From Daphnia carinata (lineage: Eukaryota): a stretch of 64,000 nucleotides of DNA. The translations under genes were made by a program, and so were the position numbers. The stretch covers positions 9,796,001-9,860,000 of the forward strand of contig NC_081331.1 of NCBI RefSeq assembly GCF_022539665.2, given 5' to 3'. The stretch's first letter is position 1, and each line of letters opens with the position of its first letter. Below the pieces are notes generated by a model that was given only the letters and a program-made list of their open reading frames with translations, had not been told where the DNA came from and did no database searches. Of the stretch, positions 50,332 to 53,300 are shown piece by piece.

Positions 50332-53300
50332 ATGGACCATTCCAATCAATATGGGTTCGCAAATTCGAATATGTCTAATGCTATGATGACAGCCCAACAG
50401 CGGCGACCTATCGGTATAGCTATTGGTGATATACCACCAATGCAAAATATGCATCAGCAGCAACAAGAACAACATAATAGTGAGCCAAACATGAATCCTA
50501 ACATATCAGCCCAACCAGTTATGATGCCTGGTGGGGCAACGACCATGGTTTCAGCGCCGATGGTTTTGATGGCACCATCGTCAGTCACTCAGACTCCCAT
50601 GGTGTCGTCCCAGCAGCATCCTCAGAAGCAACAACAATACTCTCCAGTGCCAGCAAATGCTCCTCAAGTGTCAGCACCTAGCGCAGCAGTTACCTCTGTC
50701 GCGCAACCGGCAGGATCGGCCGGTGGTGCAGGAGCAGCTAGCGCGGCAGCAACTGCCGATCCCGAGAAAAGAAAGCTGATCCAGCAGCAACTTGTGCTTC
50801 TCCTCCACGCTCACAAGTGCCAGCGAAGAGAGAACCAGGCCAATGGAGAGGTAAGTTGATGATGCATTCTTCGTATTACGATTTTTCATAGTAAATGTTG
50901 TTCTTTTCGGGTTGTGATATATCTCACATATAATAGTGCACTCTTCCACACTGCCGGACGATGAAAAACGTTTTGAACCACATGACGACGTGCCAGGCCG
51001 GAAAATCATGTCAAGTACCTCATTGCTCGTCCTCGCGGCAAATCATTTCTCACTGGAAAAATTGCAACCGTTCCGACTGCCCCGTCTGCTTGCCTCTCAA
51101 ACAAGCAGATCGGAATAAAGGTAAACGATTTTACTTATGCTTTTCAAAATTTAATAATTAATAATCAAATTTCTTTATATTCTTGTGTTAACTTTTTACT
51201 CTTCAACCTAAATAGCTCCTCATAACACTTCACAACCAAGTCCAGCGGGTTTTCATGTTGGCTTGGGTTCAAACTCAATTGGTGGTTCTTCGGTGACCGC
51301 TGGTCAAAGTGTCTTACCGGCGCACAACCAAAGCGCTGCTGTTGGAGCAGTTCAGGTTCCATCTATAACTGCGCGTAGATTGGCTAGGCCCAGATTACGA
51401 CAGAGGCAGCAGAATTCAATAGTTCCTATGAACAGCGCCCAGTTAGCTGAAAACAATCCTCCATCAGCGATTTCTGCAAGCCAACCTGTTCTTCCTGGTA
51501 CCTTGAATCGTGGCCCGGTTCTAAACATGGGACTGCAGTCTCAGCAGCAGGCCTCTGGTCCTACCGGGGCTGGTACCAGGAATATTAGGGATGCTATCTC
51601 CGACAACGCTTCCAACATTGAGCATATTGTAAGACCTCATAAAATTTCTTTGATAATCGACCTTTCGAAATCTTAATGTTAATTTAATTCAATATTTTAG
51701 ATGAGTCCAGCTAATTCGACAACACCTTTGCCCGGTGGATTGCAACTAAGCCAGGTCACTGCCGACTCTGTTCAGGGATCGAAAGAATGGCATCAGTCCA
51801 TGTCGCCTAAGCGGAAGGAGCAACAACAAGCTCAGCAAATACCAACGTCAACACCGACAACGCCTTTGCAGCAGCAGGCTCCATCTGCCCTGACACATCT
51901 TCCACCTGGTCAGCAGGCACCTCCGCCCCAGCATCAACAACAGCAGCCTGTACCACCAAGCAACAATGCAGGTTTGAGACCTAATATGCCAGGGATTGGG
52001 GAGTCTGGGCAGGAACCACGAGGAATCACGCCAACTAGTGGGATGATGATGCGCAATCCAGCCCCCAGTCCAGTGGGGGCAGAACAGTCTTCTATTGACC
52101 AAGAACAACATAGAAGTGAGCGCAGGACTCCAAACGGAATGCCATCAACCAATTCGCAACAAGAAATAAAGCCAAGTGGCGGTTTCGGAGGTGGCAACTC
52201 GGATTCTTCTGGAACGATGCCGGGTCTGTCTGGCAGTGCCAGCAATACCTCATCAGCTGTTGCCATCCCACCAATTGTCCGACCGAAGAAGGCGGGCAAA
52301 ATCATCTTCTCACCTGACGAACTTCGCCAGGCATTGATGCCCACTTTAGAGAAATTGTATCGTCAAGATCCTGATTCTATCCTATTCCGCGATCCGGTCG
52401 ATCCGCACAAACTTGGCATTCCCGATTACTTTGATATAATCAAGAAACCCATGGATTTAGCTACCATCCGGCGAAAGATTGACAATGGTCAGTACAAAAA
52501 TCCATGGGAATATGTTGACGATGTCTGGCTGATGTTTAACAACGGATGGCTTTATAACCATAAAACATCACGCGTCTATCGCTGTTGCACCAAGTTATCC
52601 AAAGTGTTTGAGGAGGAAATCGATCCGGTGATGCAATCTCTGGGCTACTGTTGCGGCAGAAAGTACACATTCAATCCGCTGGTATTGTGCTGTTACGGCA
52701 AGCAGCTTTGTTCGATTCCACGCGATGCAAAGTATTTCAGTTATCATCGCTACACGTACTGTCTCAAGTGCTTTAACGACATTCCCGGCGACACAGTGTC
52801 TCTTGGCGACGATCCTACTCAGCCGCCAACGGTCATCCGAAAAGAACAATTCACAGAATTGAAGAACGACGCGTTAGATCTGGAACCGTTCGTTGATTGC
52901 GGAGAGTGCGGGAGAAAATTGCATCAGATTTGTGTTCTTCACATGGACTGCATCTGGCCGCAAGGTTTCACCTGCGATAATTGTCTCAAAGCTCGCGGTG
53001 ATAAGCGTAAAAAGAACAAGTACGGCGCCAAGCGGTTGCCCACCACCAAACTGTCGACGTTCATCGAGAACCGAGTCAACAACTTCTTGAAGAAAAAGGA
53101 GGCGGGCGCCGGCGAGGTGTCGATCCGCGTCGTCGCCTCGGCCGACAAGATCACAAAAGTCAAACCAGGCATGAAACGTCGTTTTGTTGACATCGGAGAG
53201 ATGTGCGAAACATTTCCTTACAGAGCGAAGGCTCTGTTTGCCTTTGTGGAAATTGATGGCACTGACGTCTGTTTCTTCGGCATGCACGTGCAAGAGTACG

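Follow-up and report, generated by a model that had tools for sequence, protein, structure and literature searches.

A shortened tandem copy of the CBP gene without the KIX domain in Daphnia carinata

Arthropods usually have a single, almost invariant CBP. In the part cited, a survey of crustaceans published in 2026 suggested that there is one CBP per species, pending genomic checks (PMC12897451), and the section cited on the pea aphid describes one full CBP (PMC7290403). The KIX domain is the site at which phospho-CREB, Myb, and MLL dock, according to the passage cited (PMC12547938). Among the lineage-specific CBP paralogs of planarians, the passages cited report KIX in CBP2 and CBP3 only (10.1101/2020.09.08.287417), a weak KIX in CBP1 (10.1101/2020.09.08.287045), and no obvious defect upon RNAi of cbp-1, -4, and -5 (10.1101/2020.09.08.287045). 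In Arabidopsis, HAC2 is a CBP-family paralog without HAT activity, and KIX is conserved in the other four HACs, as stated in the excerpt cited (PMC13505635). No CBP paralog of Daphnia was found in the openly accessible main texts searched.

The window, i.e., the whole stretch of DNA analyzed here, covers 64,000 nt of Daphnia carinata (NC_081331.1 of assembly GCF_022539665.2, positions 9,796,001-9,860,000 of the forward strand). The term parent is used for the full-length Daphnia CBP gene, represented by contigs from run X1 (conspecific, RNA) and run X12 (other species, DNA). Contigs from sequencing runs were aligned to the window (4 of 24 runs at 80% identity, 1 at 95%), and runs X24 and X2 contained almost nothing matching it. 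Run X1, which is labelled 'DNA?', shows GT..AG joints and is therefore RNA; since four long X1 pieces on neighboring genes have 0 mismatches to the window, this run comes from the window's species. A spliced, expressed DUF1151 gene at 40758-42391, presumably FAM107-like, served as species control. The residues are numbered throughout as in p300, via protein P0154.

Structure and tandem context of the copy

The copy belongs to the KAT3 family: Pfam detects a KAT11-type HAT flanked by the bromodomain, RING, PHD, and ZZ, and TAZ1, TAZ2, and NCBD are also present, TAZ1 requiring splicing at sites seen in the parent. The closest protein cluster, that of P0001, holds the Daphnia pulex CBP EFX66192. 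The features of canonical metazoan CBP that are missing are KIX and the N-terminal region. The following elements were identified.

48385..48462, + strand: new non-coding upstream exon with an approximate start, given by an X1 contig joint, in CBP 3'-flank-like sequence
50082..50206, + strand: relic of a parent coding exon, with stops TGA (50099-50101) and TAA (50138-50140) in the parent frame
50272..50850, + strand: coding exon for a disordered region and the start of TAZ1, with a 9-nt in-frame deletion near 50474
50937..51120, + strand: TAZ1 exon (tblastn, 62/62 identical), with no amino-acid change vs Daphnia CBP
51216..51628, + strand: coding exon for the TAZ1-KIX linker
51701..55448, + strand: giant exon running from the KIX remnant to NCBD, a single exon in the parent too, up to 54775
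51948..52161, + strand: collapsed KIX-bromodomain linker, 214 nt vs 1114 nt in the X12 parent
52349..52591, + strand: bromodomain with P1074L, A1128G, R1133H, and E1147K, keeping Y1089, N1132, and R1137
52628..52993, + strand: RING and PHD, 1 change in 116 residues
53075..54055, + strand: HAT with R1462Q, eight clustered changes at 1476-1492, H1591Q, C1621G, and T1632A, keeping the catalytic residues
53708..53818, + strand: autoinhibitory-loop segment of 37 residues instead of 71, owing to the loss of 102 nt (34 residues)
54065..54487, + strand: ZZ (2 changes in 44) and TAZ2 (0 in 89)
54776..54847, + strand: 72 nt left from a parent intron, continuing the reading frame and replacing about 492 coding nt of the parent mRNA
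54956..55231, + strand: NCBD (Creb_binding, Pfam 4.2e-15)
55532..56151, + strand: predicted last coding exon with its stop at 56149-56151, its joint supported by a sister contig alone (97% identical)
63302..64000, + strand: 5' part of a second tandem copy (copy 2), 92.5% identical

The copy starts mid-gene at about 50061, and 1280 nt of the upstream parent mRNA have no match; nor do nt 1-1420 (about 195 codons) of the canonical gene L005 match anything in the window. Counting the relic exon, the N-terminal loss amounts to about 230 residues, and the N-terminal region with its basic motif and its nuclear-receptor interaction segment is absent. Just 5' of the truncation point, 49977-50050 is a 69% copy of 51102-51175, i.e., of the end of the TAZ1 exon and the start of the following intron, which suggests a possible rearrangement junction. 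The first usable ATG is at 50180. Both stops upstream of it also occur in copy 2, and the parent has a C at 50138. The six-exon model starting at this ATG (50180-56151) is open for 1856 codons; if the last intron is left unspliced, the frame ends at 55516, past NCBD. The uninterrupted frame announced in the initial annotation is thus open, yet it passes through the intron remnant at 54776-54847. At this site, the parent contig passes from 54774 to 54848, omitting 73 letters of the window and having 493 of its own in between. Protein P0001 reads a similar intron start at the post-TAZ2 site. The start of the last exon falls within a repeat that is 80% identical to the pre-NCBD region, and the collapsed linker has lost about 300 residues by two large in-frame deletions and one of three codons.

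The introns of the copy are at the parent's positions, and canonical Daphnia-type genes also have the giant exon. Since the parent introns are kept and the parent has the same giant exon, the copy is a segmental duplicate, i.e., a genomic, intron-keeping partial duplicate devoid of the parent's first exons. A processed retrocopy is ruled out by the retention of these introns.

The region 48390-48499, in which the new first exon lies, resembles 56486-56594 (80%). An X1 contig joins about 48462 to about 50082 across 1619 nt of intron bounded by GT..AG, its shorter arm being 76 letters long; no difference between this contig and the copy is listed, whereas copy 2 differs at 9 sites (50086-50167). 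Inside the same intron lies a 449-nt X1 piece with 1 mismatch. Two other X1 contigs carry copy-2 letters (at 50314 and 50513-50514), and one of the contigs with copy-2 letters is spliced. The spliced contig at 48462/50082 means that the new 5' end of the family is transcribed and spliced, in one run; this RNA evidence (one contig, one run) might instead stem from another copy that lies beyond the window. Copy 2 has the same two stops and the same ATG, and its frame is open to the end of the window, which cuts this copy.

Other CBP-derived sequences occur in the vicinity. At 55530-56798, X1 contigs that are 97% identical to the 3' end of the copy share its NCBD-like repeat exon and have about 280 nt upstream without any match in the window; to judge from their sequence, they represent another transcript derived from CBP, with a different rearrangement. 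The tandem units are marked by three diverged copies (74-91%) of non-coding DNA resembling the CBP 3' flank, at 46983-49532, 56486-57423, and 59311-62685, one of which provides the new first exon. Inverted-repeat elements resembling small non-autonomous transposons were found at 46088-46568, 62119-62788, and 18251-18623. The window also contains a spliced, alternatively cut transcript at 44448-45800 whose CT..AC joints denote introns of the minus strand and whose one tested ORF has no Pfam match, as well as exons of an ionotropic glutamate-receptor-type channel (15890-17049, + strand) and of a fasciclin-domain gene (20615-21896, - strand). No tRNA genes were found in the window.

The KIX deletion and its junction

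The long ORF at 51701-55516 holds both flanks of KIX, which meet at 51808|51809, and the same junction recurs once in the window.

51782..51820, + strand: KIX deletion junction (51808/51809), with 216 nt (72 codons) missing vs the parent
57783..58094, + strand: duplicate fragment of 312 nt with the same KIX-less junction and 6 differences

The parent contigs of both X1 (RNA) and X12 (DNA) have 216 nt between the positions corresponding to 51808 and 51809. Six canonical proteins were aligned, and the copy lacks 72 residues in comparison with all five of those that cover the KIX site (P0001 begins downstream). The 72 deleted codons make up nearly all of KIX. No Pfam match to KIX was obtained in the ORF at E<=1, whereas the other CBP domains were found, and the canonical Daphnia proteins P0241 and P0243 match Pfam KIX at about 1e-36. 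A tblastn search with the KIX piece detected no KIX body anywhere in the window.

The initial annotation had proposed a CBP paralog with a clean deletion of KIX at about 51808/51809, to be checked by alignment with canonical CBP and by a Pfam scan. Both analyses bear out the loss at this site, its size being corrected from about 75 to 72 residues, and the absence of KIX supports the idea that the paralog is unable to bind KIX ligands. The neofunctionalisation or competitive action that the initial annotation also considered would be conjecture. The deletion is not confined to KIX, which is one of about eight in-frame losses. Among the domains described as remaining, the bromodomain, RING, PHD, HAT, ZZ, TAZ2, and NCBD were recovered with Pfam; TAZ1 is present but does not lie in the same frame, since it is encoded by separate spliced exons.

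The fact that the RNA and DNA parents both have the same 216 nt indicates that KIX is intronless in the parent, and the loss is therefore genomic. Exon skipping is ruled out on the same grounds. No microhomology was detected at the junction (0 shared letters). The duplicate fragment, which is 98% identical, lies about 6 kb downstream of the copy's junction.

No contig spanning the KIX-less junction was present in the aligned runs, where contigs drop rare variants, so that the absence of the junction is not implied; at 95% identity, X1 has no contig cover over 51004-52935. The homolog searches and a search of representative proteins yielded no protein sharing the junction, about 8000 candidates being scored in each of the near-length and longer searches. 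A metagenome scan with a 23-nt degenerate pattern returned five loci, namely four chance matches and L005, a distant canonical gene with KIX. In a set of 240 homologs, KIX is present in 203 of the 206 having TAZ1 upstream of the bromodomain, the exceptions being the Maniola jurtina CBP isoform models X10 and X11 and a Darwinula model. In the short proteins P0265, P0267, P0269, and P0271, a diverged KIX of the Daphnia type precedes sequence unrelated to CBP; they would be the mirror case, i.e., KIX-only CBP fragments.

Constraint and selection on the remaining domains

The changes in comparison with P0241 are unevenly distributed: 0/86 in TAZ1, 0/89 in TAZ2, 1/116 in RING-PHD, 2/44 in ZZ, 7/112 in the bromodomain, and 23/317 in HAT (overall domain heterogeneity, P=0.002). 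When TAZ1, TAZ2, and RING-PHD (1/291) are set against the bromodomain and HAT (30/429), P=2e-6, a split picked after seeing the data; it is absent from the canonical CBPs of other species (P0004: 12/205 vs 25/429). In the TAZ1 exon, 14 of the 184 nt differ from the conspecific parent and no amino acid is changed, which means that this exon has been conserved and not recently converted.

The near-invariant residues that were changed are P1074L, A1128G, R1133H, E1147K, Q1173L, E1364V, R1462Q, R1478Q, D1482E, Y1483N, K1484N, A1490S, E1492N, H1591Q, C1621G, and T1632A. The HAT cluster comprises 8 changes within 17 residues (1476-1492, P=0.0006). The copy departs from 29 of the 429 columns that are at least 95% conserved, whereas P0001 departs from 11 and the 235 homologs from a median of 1; changes are about two-fold rarer at invariant sites (15/332 vs 23/267, P=0.04). 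The HAT residues Y1394, Y1397, D1399, R1410, T1411, W1436, Y1446, Y1467, E1505, D1625, and D1628 are all kept (11/11), including the catalytic residues of active KAT3 enzymes (Y1467, W1436, D1399, R1410, E1505, and D1625/D1628), as are N1132 and Y1089 in the bromodomain. The residues Y1467, W1436, D1399, R1410, E1505, D1625, D1628, N1132, and Y1089 have catalytic or pocket roles, and P1074 of p300 corresponds to P1110 of CBP.

Some of the changed positions have reported roles in the passages cited: R1462 touches the CoA adenine (PMC12305233) and nucleosomal DNA (PMC9218434), R1133 belongs to a DNA-binding patch (PMC10352329), and P1110 of CBP lies at the bromodomain ligand site (PMC8311651). 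R1462Q and the 1476-1492 cluster may lower the acetyltransferase activity. Removal of the autoinhibitory loop raises the activity of p300, as stated in the part cited (PMC9218434). The remaining loop of the copy is still basic (11 K/R, 5 D/E), and a constitutively active enzyme was for this reason set aside as a reading of the loop deletion. A single-sequence AlphaFold model was also set aside (pLDDT 36).

The dN/dS values were calculated from the numbers of mismatches with the conspecific parent (83 in 52162-53469 and 56 in 53736-54774) and the amino-acid differences to P0001, used as a stand-in for the parent protein. The pairwise values are 0.09 (435 codons) and 0.27 (345 codons), or 0.17 and 0.54 if dS is divided evenly between the branches, dS being 0.25 in one segment and 0.14 in the other; they are a record of history, not of present function. 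Substitutions were polarised at 29 coding sites where both parents are alike, taken from the 40 differences listed of 729, leaving out 7 upstream of the ATG and 4 in X12 alone. Among these listed differences, there are 19 synonymous to 4 nonsynonymous changes in the folded domains (neutral expectation 21-27% synonymous, P<=5e-8), with 8 to 3 in HAT alone, and 3 to 3 in the disordered regions. The 1856-codon model contains no stops, as against 7-30 expected under neutrality, and the 33 codons before the ATG hold two. The eight indels all keep the frame ((1/3)^8, about 1.5e-4); a 1-nt difference at 51374, listed only vs the other species' gene, counts against this regularity. The synonymous excess, the stop-free model, and the frame-keeping indels therefore lead to the rejection of a young neutral pseudogene, in line with the low dN/dS; the value near 1 by which the initial annotation would have recognized such a pseudogene was not found.

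Interpretation and comparison with known systems

On balance, the copy is probably a tandem-duplicated, shortened Daphnia CBP with a 216-nt KIX deletion, kept by selection as a narrowed co-activator. A partial duplicate would have gained a new first exon and start codon, and then shed KIX, the linkers, and half of the loop through deletions that preserve the frame; TAZ1, TAZ2, and RING-PHD would have been maintained by selection, while the bromodomain and HAT drifted. The protein would be translated from the ATG at 50180 on a transcript with the new non-coding first exon. Recruitment via the ligands of TAZ1, TAZ2, and NCBD would continue, and recruitment of the CREB/Myb/MLL type would be lost, as follows from the established function of KIX. 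The reading and writing of acetyl marks are predicted to be weaker than in the parent, acetyltransferase activity and nucleosome engagement being reduced and not abolished. What counts against selective maintenance is that the copy lacks the parent promoter region and about 230 N-terminal residues, that two stops precede the ATG, and that the frame runs via an intron remnant; that the locus is a tandem array in constant turnover, with fragments among the copies; that the KIX-less planarian paralogs have no RNAi phenotype in the report excerpted above; and that 29 of 429 conserved columns are departed from, invariant sites being only about two-fold protected. A more elaborate version is doubtful: a specialized variant, produced by stepwise in-frame pruning, which would be uncoupled from CREB/Myb/MLL, have lost half of its autoinhibitory loop and have a re-shaped surface for nucleosome and CoA contacts, and act as a selected TAZ-recruited regulator retargeting or competing with canonical CBP.

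It seems unlikely that the copy, after having functioned during most of its existence, was recently silenced and is now starting to decay, the KIX loss being tolerated because the parent supplies the function. The lost 5' end, the changed invariant residues, and the intron read through would fit such a history, as would the fast turnover suggested by the neighboring fragments and the second copy, and the existence of other diverged or truncated CBP pieces (the KIX-only proteins above). However, the single change in 291 zinc-finger residues caps any neutral phase at less than about 0.8% substitutions per site, vs a dS of 0.14-0.25, the model has neither stop nor frameshift, and a spliced 5' contig exists. 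Rather improbable, too, is a catalytically crippled decoy keeping TAZ1, TAZ2, and NCBD so as to rival full-length CBP in binding transcription factors. The docking fingers are indeed frozen while the reader and the enzyme are eroding, and R1462, R1133, and P1074 (P1110 of CBP) are altered at positions described, in the passages cited above, as contacting CoA and nucleosomal DNA, belonging to the DNA patch, and lying at the ligand site; but all 11 key HAT catalytic, cofactor, and substrate-groove residues are kept, the synonymous excess persists in HAT among the differences listed, loop removal is reported to raise p300 activity, and two changes in about 10 DNA-patch residues are often expected from a 7% background.

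Gene conversion with the parent or sister copies, keeping the conserved blocks of a neutral duplicate alike, might explain the unequal dS of the two segments (0.25 vs 0.14) and the 3' end only about 3% from the sister contig, and the tandem copies are close together. This explanation is very unlikely, since it conflicts with the 14 differences of the TAZ1 exon from the conspecific parent at unchanged amino acids and leaves the frame-keeping deletions unexplained. That the KIX junction is an assembly artefact is hardly credible: no positive point was found in its favor, the occurrence of the same junction in an independently diverged fragment (6 differences in 312 nt) argues against a one-off assembly error, and the divergence of the copy from the parent is 5-10% over its whole length.

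Read as a narrowed co-activator, the copy is a natural domain-deletion series showing which modules a spare CBP keeps (TAZ1, TAZ2, and RING-PHD) and which it lets go (KIX, the linkers, the loop, and partly the bromodomain and HAT). Set against the usually invariant CBP of arthropods, it would be a duplicate of recent origin that is still under selection and whose breakpoints are known exactly. The genus Daphnia is amenable to RNAi and CRISPR.

The closest known relative is Daphnia CBP/p300 (KAT3; EFX66192). Its exons and introns are arranged as in the copy, giant exon included, the two proteins share about 92% of their amino acids in the core, and both have TAZ1, the bromodomain, RING, PHD, HAT, ZZ, TAZ2, and NCBD. 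Unlike Daphnia CBP, the copy has neither KIX nor the roughly 230 N-terminal residues, its linkers and loop are shortened, and its bromodomain and HAT are eroded. The Maniola and Darwinula models also pass from TAZ1 to the bromodomain without KIX, but they are annotated isoforms or gene models and not paralog deletions, and the absence of KIX probably reflects exon skipping or annotation gaps. Arabidopsis HAC2 belongs to the plant lineage and has no HAT activity, whereas the Daphnia copy retains the catalytic residues. KIX-less CBP paralogs are already known in planarians, and the Daphnia copy is not a new kind of system. Smed-CBP1, -4, and -5 are likewise lineage-specific CBP paralogs; they are old and widely diverged, whereas the divergence of the Daphnia copy from its parent is about 6%, and its breakpoint can still be placed exactly.
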